Source: an uncultured Acidobacteriota bacterium (GTDB lineage Bacteria > Acidobacteriota > UBA6911 > RPQK01 > JAPXNP01). Taken from it: a stretch of 64,000 bases of DNA. Within the stretch, counting starts at the first letter, position 1. Each line of letters starts with the position of its first letter. Location of the stretch: NCBI GenBank assembly GCA_963777605.1, contig CAVZRV010000007.1:288001-352000 (forward strand), in the 5' to 3' direction. Below are positions 1 to 10,875 of this stretch, in pieces. A program made the translations under genes and the position numbers. Under the pieces are notes generated by a model. It did not search any database. It had not been told where the DNA came from and worked only from the letters and a program-made list of their open reading frames with translations.

Positions 1-113
1 CGTTGAAGCTCTGTCGACGTCAGGATCTGGTATTGCGGGAGCAACTGTCAAGGGTGCAGGAGGCGTGATGAGATTGAGGATTTGAAGGCGTCCCAATAGC
101 CGGGAAAAGTCTA

Positions 114-142
114 TTGACGGATTCGTGCGCGTGTGCTAGAAA
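114..142 (+). promoter_or_regulatory. sigma70-type promoter (extended -10) upstream of the peptide/RRE/kinase operon
   Basis: TTGACG (114-119), 17-nt spacer, TG-c-TAGAAA (134-142); ATG of the small peptide at 177. Confidence 0.55.
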
Positions 143-176
143 GTACTAATACTTGAAAGAGGGTAACCATAAGAAT

Positions 177-353
177 ATGAGCAAGATGGATATCGAAGTG
201 GCCGCCAAAGATCGACGGCGGTTTGTCAAGCGATTGGCAATTGGAGTAGGGTTGTCCATACCAGTGGTTGTCACCCTGACGAACCGGAAATTGGCGGCGC
301 AATCCGGACCCGGACCTACGGCAACACCGTCACAGACTCCCACTCTAGACTAA
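177..353 (+). CDS. small putative RiPP-like precursor / Tat-like secreted peptide (58 aa)
   Basis: MSKMDIEVAAKDRRRFVKRLAIGVGLSIPVVVTLTNRKLAAQSGPGPTATPSQTPTLD: RRxF-x-K motif, hydrophobic stretch, AxA-like site, T/P/S-rich tail; purine-rich RBS at 155-164; ends 18 nt before the PqqD gene. Confidence 0.75.
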   Translation: MSKMDIEVAAKDRRRFVKRLAIGVGLSIPVVVTLTNRKLAAQSGPGPTATPSQTPTLD

Positions 354-371
354 CCGACAACCAGCTCGGAT

Positions 372-650
372 GTGACTGTGGAGATTTCTTTCGACTGCTG
401 TCCGAGAGTGGCTGAACGAATTGTCGAGCAGGTGGCGGAGGATGAGTTGGTCCTTTATGACCCTGCTTCTGATCAGGTTCATATTCTCAACACATTCGCC
501 GCGGCAATTTACGATCTGTGTGATGGCAGCACGTCTATCTTTTCGATCGTCGCCGAACTCGAGAAAGTGATTGCATCCCCCGCATTCGATCTTGCAGAGG
601 AAACCCGCCGACTTGTCGCATCACTCGTGGACAAAAAGATTCTTGAATAG
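372..650 (+). CDS. stand-alone PqqD-family / RiPP recognition element (RRE) protein
   Basis: 92 aa with the typical PqqD pattern DELVLYDP...VHILNTFAAAIYDLCDG...LVASLVDKKILE. Confidence 0.9.
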   Translation: MTVEISFDCCPRVAERIVEQVAEDELVLYDPASDQVHILNTFAAAIYDLCDGSTSIFSIVAELEKVIASPAFDLAEETRRLVASLVDKKILE

Positions 651-1461
651 GAGTGTACGAGTCAGCCTTGAGTCCGTTCACGAACCTGGCAGCCTCGATC
701 AATTGTTTGGGCCTCTCCCGACAGCTCATCACTCGGAACTGGAATACACTATCCAGGAGTTATCGAGTGGTCACATAGCAGTGATTCCGGCCGCAGGAGG
801 CCAACCTCTTTCCGTGAGCAGCCTCCCCGAGGCGTTTTACGCGCTGGAAAGCGACTTCTACAATAATATCCTCTGTAAAGACACATCGACGTTGATTATT
901 CATGCGTCGGCGGTCGTTCACGTGACGACCCGCCAGACTATTGTGCTCCCCGGGGCCAGCCACTGTGGGAAGAGCACTCTGGCGGCGGCCCTGGCAGCAT
1001 CAGGCCGTTTTCTCTACCTCGGTGAAGAAGCCATTGGCCTCGACTGCACAAGCAACCGGTTGTTGTCCTACACCAAACCGGTCAAACTGCGCTTCGGGGC
1101 CGAGCACCGGATTCTGGCGGACGGCTCATGGCCGTGCCTACGAGTTTCGTCGCTCAACTTTACTTACGCAATTCCACCTCAGCCCGTCATCGCGACTGAG
1201 GTCGATCCAGAAGTGCCGTTTCTGTTCGTTTTTCCAACCTTCGCAGCCTCTGTCAAGGCTACCTTGGAAAGAGTTTCTCCAGCTATGGCAATCGCCAAGC
1301 TGGCCACCTATTCGGTCAACCCACCTCAGTTCCTAACATCCCACCTGGAAACCGTCTCGGTCCTCCAGCCGGGAAGAGCATCGTGGGACCTCACCTGGTC
1401 CTCCTGGGAGGAAGTCGTGAAGGAAATCGACTGTCTGTGCTTCTCTGGGTGGAACCGCTGA
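571..1461 (+). CDS. HprK-related serine/threonine kinase (P-loop), HPr-rel/lasso-kinase type; true start uncertain (TTG 571 or TTG 703)
   Basis: IIHASAV motif, Walker A GASHCGKSTLAAAL, LYLGEE at the usual LSDE/D position, YTKPVKLR. Confidence 0.75.
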   Translation: MHPPHSILQRKPADLSHHSWTKRFLNRSVRVSLESVHEPGSLDQLFGPLPTAHHSELEYTIQELSSGHIAVIPAAGGQPLSVSSLPEAFYALESDFYNNILCKDTSTLIIHASAVVHVTTRQTIVLPGASHCGKSTLAAALAASGRFLYLGEEAIGLDCTSNRLLSYTKPVKLRFGAEHRILADGSWPCLRVSSLNFTYAIPPQPVIATEVDPEVPFLFVFPTFAASVKATLERVSPAMAIAKLATYSVNPPQFLTSHLETVSVLQPGRASWDLTWSSWEEVVKEIDCLCFSGWNR

Positions 1462-1536
1462 GCCGGTCTGATCAGGTCCAGTTGCGGATAACTGAGGTTC
1501 CTATTCCGCTTCCGCTGGACTATCCTTTCTGAACCG

Positions 1537-3894
1537 ATGACCTGGGACCACGTGTCGTCGAATCTGTTGCTCCTGCTGAGTTGGTACGGTGCACTGACCG
1601 TTCTCCAGGTCGCCGCACTTCCGCTGACAGCTTCCGTTTTCCGGCGGCTCCCCGATGGTGGATCTTCCCTCTCAAAATTGACCGGGCTGGCTGTGACCGG
1701 GTTCGTCCTCTGGTCGGCCTGGGCCTATGGTCTAGTCGCCAACGACCGGAGTGCGGCCTGGTCCACGGCGGTCGTTGTCGGCGTCGCCTGTTGGGCGATT
1801 CAACTTGCCGTTGACCGCCAGGCGCTCGTCGCATGGATTCGCAGCCACCTGCCGTTGATCGCGGTTTGCGAGCTGGTATTTCTGGCGGGTTTTCTAACGC
1901 TGGCAGCGATCCGCACGATAGCGCCGCAGGTTCGGCACACTGAGCAGCCGATGGATCTCATGATGCTGACCAGCCTTTGGAGCAGCCCTGAATACCCTCC
2001 CCACGACGCCTGGCTCAGCGGATTTCCGGTCTCCTACTATTACTTCGGCTACTGGCTTCAACTCCTCGCAGGCCGCCTTTCCGGAATCGCCCCGGACATC
2101 ACATACAACCTCGGGCTTGCGACCCTCTTCGGTTTCCTCACAGCCGGACTGTTCGGCCTCGGATTCAACCTCGTACGCAGTTCCTGCCTGCGGTCTTCAG
2201 CCCGCTTGCGGTCGTCTTACACGGGTGGCTTCCTGGCCGTTGTCCTGACTGCCTGCGCGGGGAATTTTCGCTCCTTATACGACCTGGCCGTTCACGCTTC
2301 TCACCTCGACAGGTGGTGGTGGCTAAGCAGTCGCGCCCTCCACGACGTTGCACCGAACGGTGTTACCCGGCCCGTGATCACCGAATTTCCCGCCTTCAGC
2401 TACCTGCTGGGGGACAATCACCCTCACCTGCAATCGTCTTCTCTTCTGCTCATGGCAGCCGCGGTGGCAATGAGCCGCATGATGTCGTCAGACGCAAGCG
2501 TCAAGAGAGTACGGCCGGGACTCACGAGATTGTCATTCAGTGCCGGGACCTTCCTCGAGTCTGTACTCTTCCCCGCGTTTGTTCTGGCGGCCGTCACTGC
2601 CACGAACTCCTGGGATGCTCCCGTTGCGTTCGCCCTGGTTTGCCTCGGCTGCTGGTTCTCGAAGAACGGATCGGCCTGGTCGAAGCTGGCGCGAGTCGGG
2701 ATCCGTTGTGCCGGGATCGCCGCGGTGGCATTGCTCATGCTCACGCCGCTGTTGCAAACCCTGCGGGGAAAGGTGTTCGGGATTCTCCCCAACCTGTTCA
2801 ACTCAAGCGATCCGCTCCGGTTTCTCTCGGCGATGGGGCCTGGATTTCTGGCCACTTGCGCGCTCCTCTTCGTGCTCTACCGACGCCGGGCCGGATGGCG
2901 ATCGGCCGCCTGGATCGGAGGACTCGCCTTGTTGGCGCTGGTGGGCATTGCACTGGTTACGCTGAACGCAATGGCCAGCCCTCAGTGGAACAATTGGCTG
3001 AACCAACTTGGCCTCGATCCGTCCCTGCCTTTCTGGCCGCTTGCTCTTCGGCGATGGGCGCTCCATTTCCTGGTGGCCGGCGGCCTGCTCGTTGCTCTCG
3101 GAGTCGTCCTCTCGCAGAGAATCAAGGGGCGGTTTAGGCGGGAAAATGTCGGGCTCCAGATGGGCCTGATTTTGACGGTGGTCTCGATATGCCTTTTGCT
3201 TGCCCCCGAGTTGGTTTTCGTTCACGACATTTTCCATTACCGGGTCAATACTGTTTTCAAATTGCATTACGGTGCCTGGATCCTGCTGGGCCCGGTCGGG
3301 GCATACGCCTTGACGCGACTGGCTGCAACCCGTCGGCACCGAGGAAAACTTTGCCTGCTCGGCTTTGCCTCGTCGGCTGCCCTGCTCTACCCTCTCTTCG
3401 CATTTTGGCCCCTAACTTTCGGGAACGTTCCACCGCAATACACACTTTCCGCGAAGGCGGCACTGGGGGAGACCGAACCTCAGCTTCTCGATGCACTTGA
3501 GTGGATCGACAGCCACACACCGCATGACGCGGTCGTCGTGGAAGCCCCCGGGGCGGCTCAAGATCCTCTTTCCTGCCCGGTCAGCACCTATACGGGAAGA
3601 GCGACTCTCCTCGGCTGGCAGGACCACGAATTACAGTGGCGTCCGGAGCAACTCGACTCGGTCTTCACTGAACGAACCCGGGCCCTCGAATCGATTTATC
3701 GAACGGAGTCTGCTTCGATGATTGAAGCTCTGGCGGGCCGTTACGAGATCAACTTCATCGTCCAGGGCCCCCGTGAACGGGTCCGGTACGGAGATGAATC
3801 AAAGGGACTCGAACGGCTGGGTGCGCCCGTCTTCCAGAGCAAGACTTACCGGGTCTACGCAACCGGTCGCAGGAAAGCGGGATTCGAGCGGTGA
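1537..3894 (+). CDS. DUF2298 / Chlor_Arch_YYY polytopic membrane protein, probable GT-C glycosyltransferase
   Basis: TEQPMD, PPHDAWLSG..SYYYFGY, ITEFPAFSYLLGDNHPH, NTVFK, TGRATLLGW.HE.QWR; many TM helices. Confidence 0.85.
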   Translation: MTWDHVSSNLLLLLSWYGALTVLQVAALPLTASVFRRLPDGGSSLSKLTGLAVTGFVLWSAWAYGLVANDRSAAWSTAVVVGVACWAIQLAVDRQALVAWIRSHLPLIAVCELVFLAGFLTLAAIRTIAPQVRHTEQPMDLMMLTSLWSSPEYPPHDAWLSGFPVSYYYFGYWLQLLAGRLSGIAPDITYNLGLATLFGFLTAGLFGLGFNLVRSSCLRSSARLRSSYTGGFLAVVLTACAGNFRSLYDLAVHASHLDRWWWLSSRALHDVAPNGVTRPVITEFPAFSYLLGDNHPHLQSSSLLLMAAAVAMSRMMSSDASVKRVRPGLTRLSFSAGTFLESVLFPAFVLAAVTATNSWDAPVAFALVCLGCWFSKNGSAWSKLARVGIRCAGIAAVALLMLTPLLQTLRGKVFGILPNLFNSSDPLRFLSAMGPGFLATCALLFVLYRRRAGWRSAAWIGGLALLALVGIALVTLNAMASPQWNNWLNQLGLDPSLPFWPLALRRWALHFLVAGGLLVALGVVLSQRIKGRFRRENVGLQMGLILTVVSICLLLAPELVFVHDIFHYRVNTVFKLHYGAWILLGPVGAYALTRLAATRRHRGKLCLLGFASSAALLYPLFAFWPLTFGNVPPQYTLSAKAALGETEPQLLDALEWIDSHTPHDAVVVEAPGAAQDPLSCPVSTYTGRATLLGWQDHELQWRPEQLDSVFTERTRALESIYRTESASMIEALAGRYEINFIVQGPRERVRYGDESKGLERLGAPVFQSKTYRVYATGRRKAGFER

Positions 3895-5762
3895 TCCGGA
3901 CTAATGCTCTCAGCAAACACGAGTGGGCTGGATGGGGACTCCTTCTCGCCATCGGAATCTGTTCCCACTTCGTCGGCCTTGGGGATCGCGTTCTCAGTTA
4001 CGACGAGTCCGTCCACGCCTTCTATTCCTACCGACTGGCTGAAACAGGCTCCTATATCCACTCGCCGGTAACCCACGGCCCGCTGCTGTTCTACCTCAGT
4101 GCCCTTGTCTTCCTGTTGTCCCCTGCCACCGACTTCACGGTCCGGCTGATTCCAGCAATTGCCGGGTCTGGGCTCGTAGTCATGCCATTGCTGTTCCGAA
4201 GATGGATCGGCGCCGGAGCGGCTTTCGCAGCCGGCCTGCTCATTACGGCGAGTCCCCTCCTGCTCTATTTCGGGCGATACCTTCGAAACGATATCTACAT
4301 CCTCGTGCTTCTGCTGGCCTGGGTTTTCGCGATCTTTCGCTTTCTGGAAACACCCCGCCTGAGCCTGCTCTACTCACTCACCATCGCAATGGCGCTCTCC
4401 TTTGCCTGCAAGGAAGTCAGCTTTATTTCGGCTTCCCTGATTTTTCCGTTCCTGCTCATCATGGCGGCTTTGAACCGGCAACACGATCCACTTCCATCCC
4501 TGCAACTCAGCATTCTGCATTTCACCCTGCTTCTCCCCCTCTCGATGCCCCTGGTACTGCGATTGACCGGATTGGAGGCCACCCGCGTCTGGCTTGAGAA
4601 CCATCCCCGGTGGGGACTTGGTTCCTCGATTCTCGGCATCCTGGTTTCCGTCGTGATCGCTTTCCTCGCAACCAGCCGAATCGCCCGGGCGGGAGGAGTT
4701 CTCACATTCCGAAACTGGCTCAAGGCGGCCGCTCTCTTCTGGCTGATTCTCGGATTCTACTTTTCGACCTTTCTCAAGAACCCTCCGGGGCTCTTCACAG
4801 GACTGTTCCAAGGCCTCAATTACTGGCTGAGCCAGCACCACGTTGAACGCGGTGGTCAACCCGTCTACTACTACCTCATCCTGCTCGGTCTCTACGAATT
4901 CATCGTTGTCCTTTTGAGCATCGGCAGCCTCGGGTCACTGGCCGTGAAGGTCATGCAACGCGGTGCCCGCAACTGGCTCAGCGGTCTCACGGAGAAGCCG
5001 GGGGAGCGCTTCAACGTTTTTTGCGTCTGGTGGGGAATCGGAAGCCTCCTCGCGTACTCAGTCGCCGGAGAAAGGATGCCCTGGCTTGCGGTTCACATTC
5101 TCTTGCCATTCATCTTCCTGTCGGCAGGGATGATTTCCTCCCGACTGAACCGGATTCGCTCGGCTGGTCACCTGCCGAGAAACCCGCTGTTGATCCTCGG
5201 ACTGATTCTGACCGGAGTGATTGCGGTCCTCGGTCTTCGCACGAGCGTTCAGCTCAACTTCGTCAACGGCGGCCTCCCTGTTGAGCCGGTCGCTTACGCC
5301 CAGGGAGGACCCGCAGCACCCGAATTGGCCGCCAAGATCCGGGGATTTGCCCACAAGGGAACACAGGTCGCCATTGATAACCGGGTAGCGTGGCCCCTGT
5401 CCTGGTACCTGCGGGAAATCGCGCCCAACTGTCGAACCGGCGACTTCGCGGCGGGAGTCCCGCTCGAATTCGGCCTCCTGGTCAGTGCCTCCCCTGGACC
5501 GGGCAACGGGCTCGAGTCGAACGACTGGCGTCTTTTGTCACAGGGCCCCGTGCTCTGGTGGCCCATCCACGACTACCGACGGCTCTATGCTTCGCAAACC
5601 GGTGCGGGCTCGCTCCGAGAAGGACTGGTCACGTTTTGGGAAGTCTTTTACAATCGCCATTTTCAAGGACTGGCAATCGAATCCTGGCCCGCTCGTCAAG
5701 ACGCTTGGCTTTATGACAGGACCGCAACTCACCGCCGCCATCGCCTGGCTCCTTCTGATTGA
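3891..5762 (+). CDS. TIGR03663 (Agl23-like) PMT/GT-C family membrane glycosyltransferase
   Basis: LGDRVLSYDESVHA, HSPVTHGPLLFY, RYLRND, CKE, YWLSQH..RGGQPVYYY, GERMPWL..H, WPLSWYLR; GTGA overlap with the previous stop. Confidence 0.85.
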   Translation: MIRTNALSKHEWAGWGLLLAIGICSHFVGLGDRVLSYDESVHAFYSYRLAETGSYIHSPVTHGPLLFYLSALVFLLSPATDFTVRLIPAIAGSGLVVMPLLFRRWIGAGAAFAAGLLITASPLLLYFGRYLRNDIYILVLLLAWVFAIFRFLETPRLSLLYSLTIAMALSFACKEVSFISASLIFPFLLIMAALNRQHDPLPSLQLSILHFTLLLPLSMPLVLRLTGLEATRVWLENHPRWGLGSSILGILVSVVIAFLATSRIARAGGVLTFRNWLKAAALFWLILGFYFSTFLKNPPGLFTGLFQGLNYWLSQHHVERGGQPVYYYLILLGLYEFIVVLLSIGSLGSLAVKVMQRGARNWLSGLTEKPGERFNVFCVWWGIGSLLAYSVAGERMPWLAVHILLPFIFLSAGMISSRLNRIRSAGHLPRNPLLILGLILTGVIAVLGLRTSVQLNFVNGGLPVEPVAYAQGGPAAPELAAKIRGFAHKGTQVAIDNRVAWPLSWYLREIAPNCRTGDFAAGVPLEFGLLVSASPGPGNGLESNDWRLLSQGPVLWWPIHDYRRLYASQTGAGSLREGLVTFWEVFYNRHFQGLAIESWPARQDAWLYDRTATHRRHRLAPSD

Positions 5763-8175
5763 AGGACTGGCACTCCTGGCATTCCCTCTCCTTTTGCCGG
5801 TCACACGAAACCTGCCGGACAAGGGTTGGCTCCTGTCCAAGCCGGCAGGTCTTCTGCTGATTGGCTATCCAGCCTGGCTTCTGGGGAATCTCTATTCCGA
5901 AGGCTTTTCAAGAGTCTCCATTGCAGCGGTGCTGACGCTTGCCCTGGTTGCGGCCGTCGCCTGGGCCTGGCGACATCGCGCCCGGCCCGCGAAAAGGAGG
6001 ATGGACCTGGTCACGACCCTGGTCCTGCCGGAACTGGTCTTTCTCGGAACCTTCCTTCTTTTCCTCTTGCTACGGCTGTTCGACCCGGAACTTTGGAACC
6101 CGGTTTCAGGCGGTGAGAAGCCGATGGACTTCTCGCTCCTCAATGCCTGCATCCGGAGCGATCACCTCCCCCCCGAAGCGCCCTGGCTCTCAGGCCACCC
6201 GGTCAATTACTACTACTTCGGCTACGTGCTGTTCAGCATCCCATCCAAGCTCCTGGGTATTCCGGCCGAATATGCCTACAACCTCGCGCTGCCGACAGTC
6301 GCCGCGTTGACGGCCGCGGCGGCATTCACAATCGTTCAGTCGATTCAATCCCGTCACGAGCCCATTGCAGTCCCGGGGTGCAGGAAGAGTCTGGTGGCGA
6401 AGCAGGCGATCCTTTGGGCCGGCCTCGGTCCCCTCTTCGTGGCTCTGATCGGGAACCTGTTCGAGGCGAGGCTGCTCCTTTCGGGCCTGAAGAAGCTCGG
6501 GGCCGACAATGTCGCAACTGGAATTCCGGTCCTTGGGTCTCTCTGGTCGGTCGTCACAGGAGCAGGCAGACTAATCGACGGCACTGCCACCTGGCCCTAC
6601 CGGGCAGCTTCCTTTTACTGGAGCGCCACTCGCGTGATCCCCGCCCACGGCAAGGAAGTTCCTCCCATCACCGAGTTCCCGTTCTTCTCGTTGCTCTACG
6701 GTGACCTTCACCCTCACCTGATGGCCCTGCCCTTCACGATGCTGTTCATCGGCCTTGCCGTCGCAGCAGTGCTCCACCGCAGGGGATCCTCCAGGTTACC
6801 TTTTTCGGAGTCCGCCTGGCTGGCTGTGTCGCTGACGGGGATCCTCCTGATCCACCCCTGGAACGTCCCCTTGAGCGTCTTCATCCTGGTCCTCCTGCTT
6901 TGGACGATTGCAGAACCGGGCCATCGAGGGGGACTTGCACGTCTGCGGGGAGCCGCGACCAACTCGACGTTGGTGATCGTCTCAGCCCTGATCTTTGCGG
7001 CTCCCTTCCTCGTCCATTACGCCGTACCGGTCGCCCATCCCGCCGCGTGGCTTGGGACTCAGACTCCACTGGGCGTGTTCTGGGACATCTTCGGCCTCTT
7101 TCTGGCCCTGATCGTGACCGCCGGGATCTTCCGTCTCCGGGATCGCCCCTTGGAGGGATCTCTGGAAGAACCGGGAGTTCGCGTCTCCGTCCTCCTTTTG
7201 CTCGTCGCAGTTGCAATCTGGCTGGATTGGACCGATTATCCCCTGACTTCGGCTGCGGCGCTCGTGGCGGTCCTGATCGTCGCCGGCTCGCTGCGAGTCA
7301 TGCTCAAGGATCCCAACCCTGAGGATCGAATCCCCTGGGCACTCGTGATCACGGGCTCGATCGGCATCGTCATCAGCGAAACACTGACATTCGGAAACGG
7401 TGTGGGGCACATGAACACCGTGTTCAAGTTCTACTACCAGGTCTGGTTGTACTGGGCACTGGCGGCTGCCGCCCTCTCTCCGGAAGTGTTCCAGCGGTTA
7501 ATGTCGCTGCCTGGGAGGTGGTTGCGCATCGGCGCCTGTACCGGGTTTCTTGCTCTCCTTGCCGCGAGCTGCCTTTATCCTCCCTTTTCACTCTACGGCA
7601 AGATGGCGGGACGCTGGTCCAAATCTGTCCCGAATCTTGACGGCAGCCTGTTCATGGAAAGCGCGCGGCTTCCCCTCGGCGATATCCTGCTCCCGCTTCG
7701 GCCCGACCTCGAGGGGATCAGGTGGCTGAAACAAAACGTGCCCGACGCGAAAACATTGGTTGAAGCCGCCGGCTCCGACTACAGTTGGGCGGGAAGGATC
7801 AGTTCCAGCACCGGGATACCAACCGTGATCGGCTGGCCTTCCCACGTTCTCCAGCACCATCCCCAGCTTACCGCCGGAGAAGTTGACGACCGGGTTGAGG
7901 CAGTGAGAGAGATCTATGAATCGATCGACGTCGAATCAATCCTGCCTCTGCTGCGGCGATTCAACATCGGGTACATCTATGTCGGCCCCCTTGAACGCAA
8001 GACCTACGCCCCTGATGGCCTCCGGAAGTTCGACCAGCCGGCACCGGGCGTCTGGGAGCCGGCCTATATCGGATCGGGCACCCGGATCCTCCGAATCACC
8101 ATCAACGACGTGCCCTCGAAAGTCGAACCAGAAGGAACGCGCTCCGGAGCACACCGACAACCAATCGACCACTGA
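5713..8175 (+). CDS. second DUF2298 / Chlor_Arch_YYY membrane protein (GT-C-like)
   Basis: GGEKPMDF, PWLSG..NYYYFGY, ITEFPFFSLLYGDLHPH, MNTVFKFYYQ, TGIPTVIGWPSH; ATG at 5713 precedes the first TM helix (ORF track starts at 5485). Confidence 0.85.
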   Translation: MTGPQLTAAIAWLLLIEGLALLAFPLLLPVTRNLPDKGWLLSKPAGLLLIGYPAWLLGNLYSEGFSRVSIAAVLTLALVAAVAWAWRHRARPAKRRMDLVTTLVLPELVFLGTFLLFLLLRLFDPELWNPVSGGEKPMDFSLLNACIRSDHLPPEAPWLSGHPVNYYYFGYVLFSIPSKLLGIPAEYAYNLALPTVAALTAAAAFTIVQSIQSRHEPIAVPGCRKSLVAKQAILWAGLGPLFVALIGNLFEARLLLSGLKKLGADNVATGIPVLGSLWSVVTGAGRLIDGTATWPYRAASFYWSATRVIPAHGKEVPPITEFPFFSLLYGDLHPHLMALPFTMLFIGLAVAAVLHRRGSSRLPFSESAWLAVSLTGILLIHPWNVPLSVFILVLLLWTIAEPGHRGGLARLRGAATNSTLVIVSALIFAAPFLVHYAVPVAHPAAWLGTQTPLGVFWDIFGLFLALIVTAGIFRLRDRPLEGSLEEPGVRVSVLLLLVAVAIWLDWTDYPLTSAAALVAVLIVAGSLRVMLKDPNPEDRIPWALVITGSIGIVISETLTFGNGVGHMNTVFKFYYQVWLYWALAAAALSPEVFQRLMSLPGRWLRIGACTGFLALLAASCLYPPFSLYGKMAGRWSKSVPNLDGSLFMESARLPLGDILLPLRPDLEGIRWLKQNVPDAKTLVEAAGSDYSWAGRISSSTGIPTVIGWPSHVLQHHPQLTAGEVDDRVEAVREIYESIDVESILPLLRRFNIGYIYVGPLERKTYAPDGLRKFDQPAPGVWEPAYIGSGTRILRITINDVPSKVEPEGTRSGAHRQPIDH

Positions 8176-8818
8176 CCTGCAGACCGGCACCGCTGTGACG
8201 GGGAACCCAGTGAACCGGGAGCTCCAAAGTCCGCCACCCGTCACGGGCGGCAAATCCGCTCAGGATCACGTTGGGTGCAAATGCAGTTGATGGAATCAGG
8301 GGAAGATAACTGTCGAGGAAAGGCCTCCGCATCAGCCTGAACGGGCAGTTCACGTCCCGAAACCGGGAACCAAAACAAATTCTGGAGGAGACTCCTGCCA
8401 TCCGGGAGAGCCCGCTCCTGGCCACACTCAAGTTCCGGCCCATCCGGCAACCCAACAGGAAGTCATAGCTGTCCCTGGACCGCCAGAAGGCCGGGAAGTC
8501 CGATGGAATAACTTCTCCGTCACTGTCGATCTGCAACACCCATTCGGCGCAGGATTCCGTGTAACCCCGAAGAACAGCGGGGCCGTGCCCCATGTTTGGG
8601 TGCGAGCGGACCGTAAGTTCGTGGAATGGTTCCCTCAGTTCTGAGAGCAAATCGGGAGTCCGGTCGGTGGACCCGTCATCGAGCACGATCATCTCGAACT
8701 GAACTCCGGCCCCACGCAACAAGCGGCACCACTGTTCCACCGTCGTCGCAATTACCGATTCCTCGTTGTAGACGGGCATCACCACCGAAAGTTCTTCGGC
8801 AGCTCTCTCTGCGTTCAC
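8102..8818 (-). CDS. GT2 family polyprenol-phosphate glycosyltransferase (DPM1-like)
   Basis: SVVMPVYNE, DDGSTDRT, NMGHGPA, IDSDGE, DVNCPFRLMRR. Confidence 0.9.
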   Translation of the reverse strand: MNAERAAEELSVVMPVYNEESVIATTVEQWCRLLRGAGVQFEMIVLDDGSTDRTPDLLSELREPFHELTVRSHPNMGHGPAVLRGYTESCAEWVLQIDSDGEVIPSDFPAFWRSRDSYDFLLGCRMGRNLSVARSGLSRMAGVSSRICFGSRFRDVNCPFRLMRRPFLDSYLPLIPSTAFAPNVILSGFAARDGWRTLELPVHWVPRHSGAGLQVSGRLVVGVLRSAFLLVRLSRARR

Positions 8819-8854
8819 TTAGGCACCTGAATTCCGAGGCTCCTTAGCCAAGGC

Positions 8855-10624
8855 TCAGGGATCTCCCGAGATATTCGCGTCGTCATGCATCAATTCCAGC
8901 ACCTCCACTCGCAGGTTGGGACCGGGCCTCTCCACCTCCGACAGAGAGTCGAAAGGAAGGAAGAACCCGTCGATAATGTCCCAGCTTGCGGATTCCGCCC
9001 CTGTAGTCGAGATGAAGTCAGCCTGCCTGAGAACGTGGCCCTGCCATTTGGAGAGTTCCCCGGCCGGCGAGTTACCCAGTTCGAGGGGGTGCCAGGAGGT
9101 CACCCTCACGATCCGACTTCCCGATATATCGCCGGGCTGCGGGAACCGGTAAACCTCCCGGCCCTGGCTTCCGATATCAGGATTGGTTAACTGGTCACGA
9201 TAGAGCCGTGAGATGAAATCCCCGGCGCTCGCGCCATAGCGCCTCGAAACGTACTCCATTCGCCGTGCCAGGGAATCCGGGCTCTCCAGGATCTGGGGCT
9301 CCGATTCAGGCCCGCAGAGGAGCACGATCGGCGTCTCTTGGCTCACGTTGTCCCGGATCCACTGGCCCGCCAGGGCGCGAGTGTCCGTCTTCGAAAGCAG
9401 CCCATCCAGTCGAACCGACCTCGCCACCGAACCCGCGAAGCTGACCGTCAACAATACGGTCAGGACGGTTTTGGTCAGCCTGCGGTCGAGTGCGTTGAAA
9501 AGATCGGCGAATCCTTTCCCTGCCAGAACCGCCAGGAAGGGCAAAATCGGCAGGAGGTAGCGAAACGGGACGGGATGTTGAAACGGCACCAGCGCCAGCA
9601 GGTGCAGCAAAACGAAACCCGCCAGGAAGACCGTCGCTTTCCGGCCCCGGGGCACCGCGAAAGCGAAAACCACACCGGCGCCCGCCAATCCCAGTCCCAG
9701 CAACTCTCCCGGACCGAACTGGAGCGGCCGCAGAATTCGCCCCAGCGAAAGCCCGACACTCCAGGGAGGATCTCCCTCTTGCCACAAGTAGAAGATTTTC
9801 AAGATGGAAAACAGTTCGGAGAGGGCTGCCCGGAAGTTCGGAATGATGTATGGGTTGAGCAGAAAGAAGAGTGCCAGGGGGACGATCGCGATGATCGCCA
9901 AGTGCCTCAGGCGGTCTTGCCAGGAGCGTTCGAGGCCGGATGTAAAGAGGTCGGCCAGGGCGATACGGGGGCCCATCAGCAGGGCCGTGTACTTGCAGGC
10001 GGCCGCCAGTCCGAACAGAGCCGAAGACATCACGAGAGTCCCGGGTTCCCCATTCTCCTGGTACCGCAGGAAGTAAAGCGCGCACAAGGAAAGGAAAAGT
10101 ACCATCGGAGTATCCGTGACCCCAAAATGGGCATCCCGGACCGCGAGCGGGGCACACGCAAAAAGCCCGGCCGCAGCGAGAGCCCCGGTCTCCGAAGTCA
10201 GACGACGGCCGATCTTGAAAACAACCCCTATCGTCGCGGTACCGCAGAGGACCGATATCCAGCGCGGGATCAGGAAGTAGGCATCCTGGAAGCGGGCGAA
10301 ATCGGCCACGAGGCTGCTCGACGCAGGCTCGCGAAACAGAGTAGCAACCCAGTAGTAGAGGTGATACAGGATTGCGGTCACCTCGGATACAAGGGCCGGG
10401 TAAACGTAAAAACGGGGATCCCCCAGCCTTTCGAACAGGTGAAGAGCCGGTTCGACGATCAGGCTCTCATCGGGACGCACGTATAGGTTGGAAAGAATCG
10501 GGGTCCCGAATCCCACTCCCCAGGCTCTGAGTATGAACCCGGCGATCACAAGAATCGCCAACACAATGAGATCGGCCGCACCCCCCCTCCACCCTTTGGG
10601 TTGCGGCGGGACGGGCCCCATCAC
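8855..10624 (-). CDS. ArnT/PMT-like (GT39/GT83) membrane glycosyltransferase
   Basis: RPDE, YPAL, R..SVLCG, AHFGVTD, GLAAACKY, RYLLPILPFL; GGAGG RBS before GTG 10624 (ORF track extends to 10798). Confidence 0.85.
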   Translation of the reverse strand: MMGPVPPQPKGWRGGAADLIVLAILVIAGFILRAWGVGFGTPILSNLYVRPDESLIVEPALHLFERLGDPRFYVYPALVSEVTAILYHLYYWVATLFREPASSSLVADFARFQDAYFLIPRWISVLCGTATIGVVFKIGRRLTSETGALAAAGLFACAPLAVRDAHFGVTDTPMVLFLSLCALYFLRYQENGEPGTLVMSSALFGLAAACKYTALLMGPRIALADLFTSGLERSWQDRLRHLAIIAIVPLALFFLLNPYIIPNFRAALSELFSILKIFYLWQEGDPPWSVGLSLGRILRPLQFGPGELLGLGLAGAGVVFAFAVPRGRKATVFLAGFVLLHLLALVPFQHPVPFRYLLPILPFLAVLAGKGFADLFNALDRRLTKTVLTVLLTVSFAGSVARSVRLDGLLSKTDTRALAGQWIRDNVSQETPIVLLCGPESEPQILESPDSLARRMEYVSRRYGASAGDFISRLYRDQLTNPDIGSQGREVYRFPQPGDISGSRIVRVTSWHPLELGNSPAGELSKWQGHVLRQADFISTTGAESASWDIIDGFFLPFDSLSEVERPGPNLRVEVLELMHDDANISGDP

Positions 10625-10875
10625 AGGGTTACGCCTCCTCGCCGATGCCCGCATCGGCTGCGTCGGCGACGCCTTGATCTGGACCCCGACGCGCTCGCAA
10701 CAGGTGCGTGCGAATTTCTGACTTAGGACACTGGTCCGCTGAAGCATGAATCGCTCGGATTCTAGCCTCTCCCCCTGCGATATGGAAGTCCGGGACACCG
10801 TCCGTTTCCGGCCGTCCGGACTCTACCCGCCGTCAGTGGGCCTGCGGTATGTTCGCCTGGTCCCGCCTGATTGAC

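Follow-up and report, generated by a model that had tools for sequence, protein, structure and literature searches.

What product is encoded where a gene for a 58-residue peptide, a stand-alone PqqD-type recognition element (RRE) of the kind that serves peptides synthesized by the ribosome and modified after translation (RiPPs), an HprK-related kinase and a series of glycosylation genes lie side by side in an uncultured Acidobacteriota bacterium? The window analysed here, a 64,000-nucleotide (nt) stretch of one contig (G000:C7:288001-352000) of a 6.73-Mb genome in 53 contigs, opens with this arrangement. The tentative answer from sequence and models, plausible without being probable, is that nine adjacent genes form an acidobacterial relative of the linear polyphosphorylated peptide (LPP) and HPr-rel-A systems that makes a modified, exported peptide and is joined to a module for lipid-linked glycosylation. 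The block of this soil acidobacterium thus suggests an undescribed route to a secreted, sugar-coated peptide. All nine genes are present at the positions given below. Open reading frame (ORF) listing and family scans agree with every gene position, gap and overlap in an earlier, sequence-only reading of this DNA; its gene list is right for the eight genes within the window and lacks the ninth, a nucleotidyltransferase gene of family NTP_transf_5 (PF14907), which lies just outside.

The kinase was used for a six-frame search of 401 genomes of the phylum, 12 of which gave a match at E<=1e-5. Clearly related kinases (32-36% identity) are confined to three genomes, all from one genus of the same family, and in 3/3 of these the nine genes are colinear: NTP_transf_5; divergently from it the peptide, PqqD, the kinase, a DUF2298 protein, an Agl23-like protein and a second DUF2298 protein; and, convergently, a GT2 glycosyltransferase and a PMT_2 protein. 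The linkage of peptide, PqqD and kinase to DUF2298 and TIGR03663 genes in other genomes, on which the sequence-only reading had staked its proposal, therefore holds in each relative with this kinase subtype. The divergent NTP_transf_5 gene is also kept in all three, and the kinase and first DUF2298 genes overlap by 4 nt in two of them (L015 and L017). The peptide is the best-conserved gene of the block (56-66% identity to its orthologues; 65-68% by tblastn). PqqD reaches 39-42% (41-46% by tblastn), and the tblastn identities of the others are 49-52% for PMT_2 (from residue 76-143 onward), 46-48% for GT2, 37-42% for NTP_transf_5, 37-40% for the Agl23-like protein, 35-37% for the first DUF2298 protein and 32-36% for both the second DUF2298 protein and the kinase. 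Scanning a contig collection with the kinase alignment gave three related loci, from metagenome-assembled genomes of uncultured Acidobacteriota. The surroundings of the block were compared by taking a greedy set of ORFs of >=100 amino acids (aa) within -30/+40 kb and seeking counterparts in 60 kb per relative cluster. Counterparts were found for 7/7 cluster ORFs and 0/48 flanking ORFs (one of the 48 is an opposite-strand ORF over a fucosidase gene, the fucosidase gene itself being outside the test). Because the same nine genes are colinear in three relatives while none of the 48 flanking ORFs is shared, the arrangement is not due to chance.

The peptide gene (177..353, + strand) encodes 58 aa from its ATG and, as judged from its sequence, the conserved part reads as a Tat-type (twin-arginine translocation) signal, a feature overlooked in the sequence-only reading. 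The n-region KD-RRRFVK, of the form RRRF[VL][KR], has the twin arginines of the Tat motif (S/T-R-R-x-F-L-K) and is followed by an h-region of 15 residues (LAIGVGLSIPVVVTL), the basic c-region TNRK and a small-x-small site. The predicted signal-peptidase site is conserved in four genomes, as LAA↓QS in the window and VVA↓QS elsewhere, and leaves a Pro/Thr-rich core of 16-17 aa, (A)QSGPGPTATPSQTPTLD. Invariant in the four orthologues are K-D-R-R-R-F-x-x-R-L-A-I-G-x-G-L ... P-x-x-V-T-L ... R-K ... A-Q-S-G. The last of these elements, A41-Q42-S43-G44, is followed by a short, variable, Pro/Thr-rich tail; core length ranges from 11 to 17 aa, and length and stop position are kept. TIGR01409 (TAT_signal_seq) matches 5/10 peptides of the wider family described below (best E 0.0016), and the genome encodes TatC. 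With a conserved part of Tat type, export would not call for a transporter or peptidase of its own.

The peptide gene is real and under purifying selection, as its codons indicate. The ratio of non-synonymous to synonymous differences (pN/pS) is 0.07-0.45 at pS 0.45-0.73 (34 ungapped codons, all six pairs), which upholds the earlier view of the ORF as a genuine gene. It matches no Pfam or NCBIfam family above cut-off. A single-peptide search of 5.8 billion proteins returned one match, identical to the ORF at the relative locus L015. The alignment of the four peptides matched metagenome sequence at one locus only, and this candidate was set aside as an unrelated membrane ORF.

The leader recurs well beyond this clade. 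TIGR04352, the 'HprK-related kinase A' model, scores above its cut-off of 200 bits in 6/401 sampled genomes, and at 6/6 of these loci a small ORF with a leader of the same type stands directly upstream of PqqD-kinase-NTP_transf_5 (five were found with a first regular expression, the sixth by inspection). This bears out the proposed association of peptide, RRE and kinase. A stricter motif, RRxF[LV][KR]...P[VA]xx[TA][LST], written from sequences already inspected, matches the window peptide, the ORFs at all six above-cut-off loci and that at L053 (of the window's clade), and 0/23 other loci. In six frames of the entire 6.73-Mb genome its one match is the window peptide, so the leader goes beyond a generic Tat signal. 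A profile of ten peptides retrieved 38 small proteins (64-140 aa), unnamed or 'hypothetical' and free of Pfam domains, and the leader is common to 47/48 peptides. Their cores form groups with no relation to one another: one is Gly-rich with GSLG, one reads QVDYTQTAYRYG..., one contains Cys, and one is the Pro/Thr type of the window. RiPP precursors typically combine a constant leader with cores that vary.

Other combinations were seen at more distant loci. A genome of another family (G254, L018:9771-12486) has a 76-aa ORF whose N-terminus is signal-like and whose tail is Cys-rich; after it come genes for a radical SAM-SPASM-PqqD fusion and an HprK-like kinase, and a PMT_2 protein is encoded 2.3 kb away. 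Several distant HprK-like/NTP_transf_5 pairs have glycan genes within a few kb (anecdotal, without a background count): an epimerase and a glycosidase at L019, a Wzx-like Polysacc_synt_3 protein at L020, GT87 at L022, a DUF6798 membrane protein with sugar-modifying enzymes at L024 and a GT2-TPR protein at L025.

The cytoplasmic enzymes of the block follow the peptide closely. The PqqD-type RRE (372..650, + strand, 92 aa) starts after an 18-nt spacer and matches PF05402 with 36.6 bits (cut-off 23.4); bit scores here and below come from family-model scans of ORF translations against Pfam and NCBIfam, with curated cut-offs alongside. Co-folding of PqqD with the peptide, which the sequence-only reading had suggested, gives ipSAE 0.45 (runs 0.45, 0.28 and 0.49; best control 0.02), a mark reached by 116/157 solved complexes and 2/215 mismatches, with 18/157 and both passing mismatches lying at <=0.60. 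Contacts agree to >=78% and partner pLDDT is >=50. The model lends weak support to the pairing and may reflect memory of solved RRE-leader complexes.

The HprK-related P-loop kinase (571..1461, + strand) has 296 aa from TTG 571 and overlaps the PqqD gene by 80 nt. Its sole family match is TIGR04352 (56.9 bits, E 1.7e-15, against the cut-off of 200) and its Walker A motif reads GASHCGKST. The AlphaFold (AF2) model, built from 57 sequences, has pLDDT 92.1 and is structured from residue 16, which speaks for a start at TTG 571 and for the overlap of 80 nt. Of 36 Foldseek matches at E<=0.001, ranks 1-31 are ATP-dependent phosphoenolpyruvate carboxykinase (PEPCK; best E 6.6e-7) and rank 36 is a respiratory supercomplex chain; rank 38 is the HPr kinase/phosphatase 3tqf (E 1.6e-3, probability 0.99). 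PEPCK and HPr kinase/phosphatase share one fold, and the model places the kinase in this PEPCK/HprK-type P-loop fold. A sequence profile of the kinase run against PDB chains gave only P-loop matches to ABC transporters and no HprK. The kinase belongs to a large family (7031 representatives at E<=0.001) and within it to a small subtype (11 at E<=1e-30); no second kinase of the window type was found in the same genome.

The third enzyme came to light when the DNA upstream of position 1 was inspected, a check that the sequence-only reading had listed. Scanning 18 kb of upstream DNA located the NTP_transf_5 gene (G000:C7:286827-287972, which is L002:16827-17972 in the coordinates of that upstream DNA, - strand; PF14907, uncharacterised nucleotidyltransferase, 107.2 bits). 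It ends 28 nt before window base 1, diverges from the gene of the peptide and completes, together with PqqD and the kinase, the enzyme trio that NCBIfam names HPr-rel-A. The genome has a second PF14907 gene elsewhere (G000:C27:83855-84607, 177.3 bits).

The glycosylation module begins 75 nt beyond the kinase with the first DUF2298/chlor_Arch_YYY membrane protein (1537..3894, + strand, 785 aa; PF10060 292 bits, TIGR03662 368.5 bits). The predicted structure of this protein (pLDDT 65, pTM 0.70) was aligned with known structures: ranks 1-37 are all enzymes of glycosyltransferase fold C (GT-C; Z 16.5-10.3) and unrelated folds reach Z <=6.5. ArnT leads with Z 16.5 (331 residues, rmsd 4.9), and yeast STT3 (16.4), AglB (15.6) and Pmt4 (14.8) are close to it. 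The C-terminal part superimposes on AglB's globular C-terminal domain (Z 8.8, rmsd 3.4 over 111 residues), and Foldseek gives three matches at E<=0.001, all DPY19. On this model the DUF2298 proteins have a GT-C fold and look most like oligosaccharyltransferases (OST) of the STT3/AglB type. Residues ~641-779 of the first protein form a C-terminal domain that resembles the peptide-binding one of archaeal AglB and in which T686, G687, G693, W694, H697 and Q700 are invariant in 8 homologues; by analogy with WWDYG these may be an acceptor-binding motif.

The next gene overlaps the first DUF2298 gene by 4 nt and encodes a TIGR03663/Agl23-like membrane protein (3891..5762, + strand, 623 aa; TIGR03663 265.2 bits, cut-off 126.25; PMT_2 41.2 bits). 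The sequence-only reading had taken it for a sugar transferase. The family is now named for flippase activity (Agl23), and from its family match the protein, which has a PMT_2 domain, is a candidate flippase for polyprenyl-phosphate sugars, or a transferase. The second DUF2298/chlor_Arch_YYY protein (5713..8175, + strand; PF10060 312.9 bits, TIGR03662 481.8 bits) has its orthologue in the second DUF2298 protein of each relative (32-36%), the first being a paralogue (25-30%). Its ORF opens at 5485, the TIGR03662 match begins at ORF residue 82, and ATG 5713 is the likely start, with a 50-nt overlap with the Agl23-like gene.

Two genes converge on this series. GT2 (8102..8818, - strand, 238 aa; PF00535 74.7 bits) most resembles, by sequence, polyprenyl-phosphate sugar synthases of the ArnC/GtrB/DPM1 type; among NCBIfam models it comes nearest to ArnC (E 2.5e-17), dolichyl-phosphate hexose transferase and PpgS, with each score far short of its cut-off. 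The second DUF2298 gene (+) and the GT2 gene (-) share 74 nt at their convergent 3' ends (window:8102-8175). The PMT_2/ArnT-like GT-C protein (8855..10798, - strand) matches PMT_2 with 72.2 bits and STT3 and PMT more weakly; its longest ORF has 647 aa and its start is uncertain. The count of four GT-C-type proteins in the sequence-only reading therefore stands, as two match PMT_2 and the top of the DUF2298 structural list is GT-C only.

These assignments can be joined in a pathway. The 58-aa precursor would be made with its conserved N-terminal 40 residues serving as leader and Tat-type signal. PqqD would bind the leader in the cytoplasm and present the core to the HprK-like kinase, which would phosphorylate a Ser of the core; the invariant Ser43 of A-Q-S is the likeliest candidate (by analogy with LppK of the LPP systems, which acts on S3). 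The PF14907 nucleotidyltransferase might then extend the phosphate with another group, PsmN being the model. The modified peptide would exit via Tat and be cut by signal peptidase I near LAA↓QS. Outside the membrane the glycosylation module would take over: GT2 would make a polyprenyl-phosphate sugar, the Agl23-like protein would flip it, and the two DUF2298 proteins and PMT_2 would transfer sugars to Thr/Ser of the tail or extend a phosphoglycan. The scheme keeps the core of the sequence-only reading, in which the RRE presents the peptide to the kinase and glycosylation comes later; we infer phosphorylation, export and glycosylation alike. Its parts differ in strength. Gene association and published analogues make it very probable that PqqD, the kinase and the nucleotidyltransferase have the peptide as their substrate; the sequence features make export with signal cleavage rather probable; and the conserved operon structure leaves the action of the GT-C module on the same peptide evenly balanced. 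A more specific version, which we regard as speculative and on the unlikely side, is that PqqD holds the Tat leader back, as Tat proofreading chaperones do, until kinase and nucleotidyltransferase have primed the core, and that the exported core is finished by OST-like GT-C enzymes.

The main rival is that the glycosylation module is merely co-regulated and has other targets: two independent modules would share a transcript, with peptide, PqqD, kinase and nucleotidyltransferase yielding a phosphorylated, exported peptide and with GT2, the Agl23-like protein, DUF2298 and PMT_2 serving other envelope proteins or a surface glycan. We consider this rather unlikely. In its favour, the LPP clusters themselves sit among polysaccharide genes, for which a part in modifying the peptide is unproven according to the available text of the LPP report (PMC13381572). 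DUF2298 and PMT_2 occur without this kinase in G420, G402 and genus g13. G420 belongs to the same family and is 91% complete in 750 contigs; in it and in G402 DUF2298 stands beside a PMT_2-NHL protein and the kinase was not found, and the three g13 genomes (G250, G422 and G426) have DUF2298 without a linked kinase. Conversely, HPr-rel-A triads do without DUF2298: among eight distant-kinase loci NTP_transf_5 is adjacent in >=5/8 and DUF2298 in 0/8, and DUF2298 is likewise absent from the six above-cut-off loci. The coupled arrangement itself is seen in four genomes of one family and may go back to a single evolutionary event. As the modules occur apart elsewhere, their coupling is a derived feature of one acidobacterial lineage.

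Against independence, the nine genes travel as a block into differing genomic surroundings, the kinase and first DUF2298 genes overlap in the two relatives named above, and the genome's only DUF2298 genes are the two in this cluster. The core, too, is short and Pro/Thr-rich in this clade, whereas the cores of other clades are unrelated. A Pro/Thr-rich segment is the classic acceptor context of PMT-type O-glycosylation.

Across the order, DUF2298 is present in 10/61 genomes; three family members without the kinase (G033, G159 and G180) also lack DUF2298. The G420 and G402 loci merit a separate remark. Each encodes DUF2298 and a PMT_2 protein of ~1000 aa with C-terminal NHL repeats (L027:1694-7261 and L028:63-6555), a second recurrent pairing of DUF2298 with GT-C.

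Further points weigh against the reading of the block as a peptide system joined to glycosylation. PqqD scores 26.4 bits with TIGR04353 ('PqqD family peptide chaperone'), below the cut-off of 35, and the kinase stays below the TIGR04352 cut-off in the six-frame search as well (54.2 bits). The window peptide reaches 14.2 bits with TIGR01409, below the cut-off of 16.7. The leader motif was written post hoc, so its 6/6 follows from the way it was built, and the one independent test is how rare it is in the genome. The likeness of A-Q-S to LPP spans three residues, and [AG]-x-[ST] within 16 residues after the leader motif is found in only 26/48 family peptides. On the membrane side, a pLDDT of 65 makes the DUF2298 model only moderate, and hhalign of the DUF2298 and Agl23-like alignments found no relation (probability 0.3).

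A second alternative, which we regard as distinctly improbable, is that the peptide is never released: the uncleaved signal would be an anchor and phospho-Ser the primer of a phosphoglycan, the whole being a small lipid-free 'proteoglycan' carrier of a surface polymer. The core of only 11-17 aa would suit this, PsmN-type enzymes add sugars to phosphate as far as the available text of PMC6993621 describes them, and two OST-like DUF2298 proteins plus a further GT-C enzyme exceed the need of two or three Thr sites. Yet a good signal-peptidase site is conserved in four genomes, the h-region has only ~15 residues, and the block contains no polymerase or chain-length regulator. That the small ORF is no substrate at all, whether a decayed 5' fragment of a gene for a Tat-exported protein or a chance ORF in the promoter region, would fit its lack of a family and its single database match, but is scarcely credible and largely refuted by pN/pS and the distribution of the leader motif, length and stop being kept in four genomes and the same leader standing at 6/6 above-cut-off HPr-rel-A loci and in 38 further small proteins.

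The transcription signals of the block are presumed to lie in the divergent intergenic region (1..176) between the NTP_transf_5 and peptide genes. A promoter had been placed at ~114, and the consensus scan shows no promoter-like site there; its single match lies inside the kinase gene, with 0.8 +/- 1.0 expected by chance. The same type of scan found no terminator-like site in the 75-nt gap 1461-1537. Beyond PMT_2 come an alpha-L-fucosidase gene and then a gene for a ModF-like ABC ATPase. On the other side, a B12-binding radical SAM protein (L002:14570-16165, + strand, 531 aa; weakly resembling HpnJ and lipid-type B12-radical SAM enzymes) is encoded 1.8-3.4 kb upstream of the window. It was rejected as a core enzyme: a gene for an RRM-type RNA-binding protein (L002:16394-16699) intervenes, and no counterpart occurs near the relatives' clusters. 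An upstream GFO/IDH/MocA oxidoreductase was likewise rejected as a member; a similar family flanks the relatives' clusters, but the flank test found no counterpart. Some 9-11 kb upstream (L002:7120-9450, + strand) lies a gene for a 776-aa protein with multihaem cytochrome c motifs (Cytochrome_C554, C7) and HEAT and TPR repeats.

What would the locus mean? The HPr-rel-A trio is catalogued without a described substrate in the literature searched, and this locus ties both the trio and DUF2298 to one 58-residue peptide, the tail of which is an evident acceptor candidate. Literature searches for 'HprK-related kinase', HPr-rel-A, TIGR04352 or NTP_transf_5 found nothing, as did one joining twin-arginine with a RiPP precursor peptide and PqqD; for DUF2298 they returned incidental mentions only. 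By term search, the available text of RRE-Finder (PMC7470986) and of PMC12710340 mentions neither kinases nor nucleotidyltransferases. LPP logic would extend from Bacillota to Gram-negative soil bacteria, with the cell's own Tat and signal peptidase replacing a dedicated peptidase and exporter. If PqqD does hold a Tat leader, this would be a RiPP class with a true Tat signal for its leader. Should the GT-C module act on the peptide, the product would be the first of RiPP type to be decorated from polyprenyl-phosphate sugars outside the cytoplasm, and finishing by OST-like GT-C enzymes would give DUF2298 (chlor_Arch_YYY) a first function, as a peptide or phosphopeptide glycosyltransferase.

Among known systems, the membrane module has its nearest likeness in Archaea. 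TIGR03662 and TIGR03663 genes form a pair in Chloroflexi and Archaea. According to the available text of PMC11182771, Agl23 of Haloarcula hispanica is a putative flippase for hexose-P-dolichol, and a lipid-linked glycan is translocated by the purified protein. The archaeal Agl22/Agl23 route and the TIGR03662/TIGR03663 pair share with the window a GT2 polyprenyl-phosphate sugar synthase, a TIGR03663 protein and adjacent DUF2298/YYY proteins. The window set differs in being bacterial, in having two DUF2298 paralogues and PMT_2, and in being tied to a RiPP-like cassette.

Phosphorylated and phosphoglycosylated lasso peptides offer the second comparison. In paeninodin-type clusters an HprK homologue (PadeK) phosphorylates the C-terminal Ser of the precursor, and in the pseudomycoidin system (PsmK/PsmN) the phosphate receives one or two hexoses from the NTP-transferase PsmN, as described in the available parts of PMC8498205 and PMC6993621. 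Common to these, as far as described, and to the block are an HprK-like kinase for a precursor Ser before processing, an enzyme of NTP-transferase fold and a B1/PqqD-type RRE. Unlike them, the block has no lasso cyclase or B2 peptidase, and its candidate Ser is not C-terminal. Neither lasso cyclase nor B2 peptidase domains were found in the nine genes or in 9 upstream ORFs (the cyclase was not searched genome-wide); the genome's only match to PF13471 (transglutaminase-like, B2 family) is on another contig (G000:C28:117599-117928, 85.9 bits), where it may mark a separate lasso cluster.

PMT-family GT-C enzymes O-mannosylate Pro/Thr-rich segments of exported proteins in Actinobacteria and eukaryotes, and the PMT systems known so far modify Sec substrates while these are being translocated. 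The proposed pathway resembles PMT O-mannosylation in its GT-C enzyme, polyprenyl-phosphate sugar donor and Thr/Pro-rich acceptor outside the membrane, but here the acceptor would be a dedicated 17-residue peptide, perhaps already phosphorylated in the cytoplasm.

A PF14907 nucleotidyltransferase beside kinase and PqqD is what we take to be the usual HPr-rel-A context. The HPr-rel-A loci (TIGR04352/TIGR04353 with PF14907) have the same three adjacent protein types and the same Tat-like leader peptides upstream. They differ in that the window kinase and PqqD fall below the curated cut-offs, that the nucleotidyltransferase gene is divergent rather than downstream, and that the DUF2298/Agl23-like/GT2/PMT_2 module of the window occurs at 0 of the 8 + 6 other loci.

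Nearest among published systems is LPP of Bacillota (Popov et al., Nat Commun 2026, PMC13381572). As the available text of that report has it, LPP clusters encode a precursor (LppA), an RRE (LppB), an HprK-like kinase (LppK), an NTP transferase (LppN), a SipW-like signal peptidase (LppS) and an exporter, and often lie inside capsule loci; LppK puts up to four phosphates on S3 of a core starting AQSNWK. LPP is described there as Bacillota-restricted, and the same text mentions neither Tat signals nor GT-C enzymes. The sequence-only reading held that the locus matches no RiPP class; LPP overturns this, since it shares the logic of precursor, RRE, HprK-like kinase and NTP transferase without a lasso cyclase. 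The likeness, at family level only, covers a linear precursor, a discrete PqqD-type RRE and the two enzymes, and extends to removal of the leader by a cut of signal-peptidase type (here predicted). It also includes the start of the core, A-Q-S with a phosphorylated S3 in LPP and the invariant A41-Q42-S43 in the window peptide, and the company of polysaccharide genes there and glycosylation genes here. The leaders differ: that of the window is of Tat type, RRxF[LV]K...P[VA]xxTL, and the LPP leader YxxPxVLxHQxIxFETxxS is absent from it. No SipW-like peptidase or MsbA-like exporter accompanies the window peptide, the nine genes containing no peptidase or ABC domain, and the block is acidobacterial, its operon itself encoding GT-C and GT2 enzymes. 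Systems of this kind are already known from LPP and HPr-rel-A. The novelty lies in the Tat-type leader, in doing without a dedicated peptidase and exporter and, above all, in the operon-level coupling of a Tat-leader/HPr-rel-A cassette to GT2, an Agl23-like protein, two DUF2298 proteins and PMT_2.

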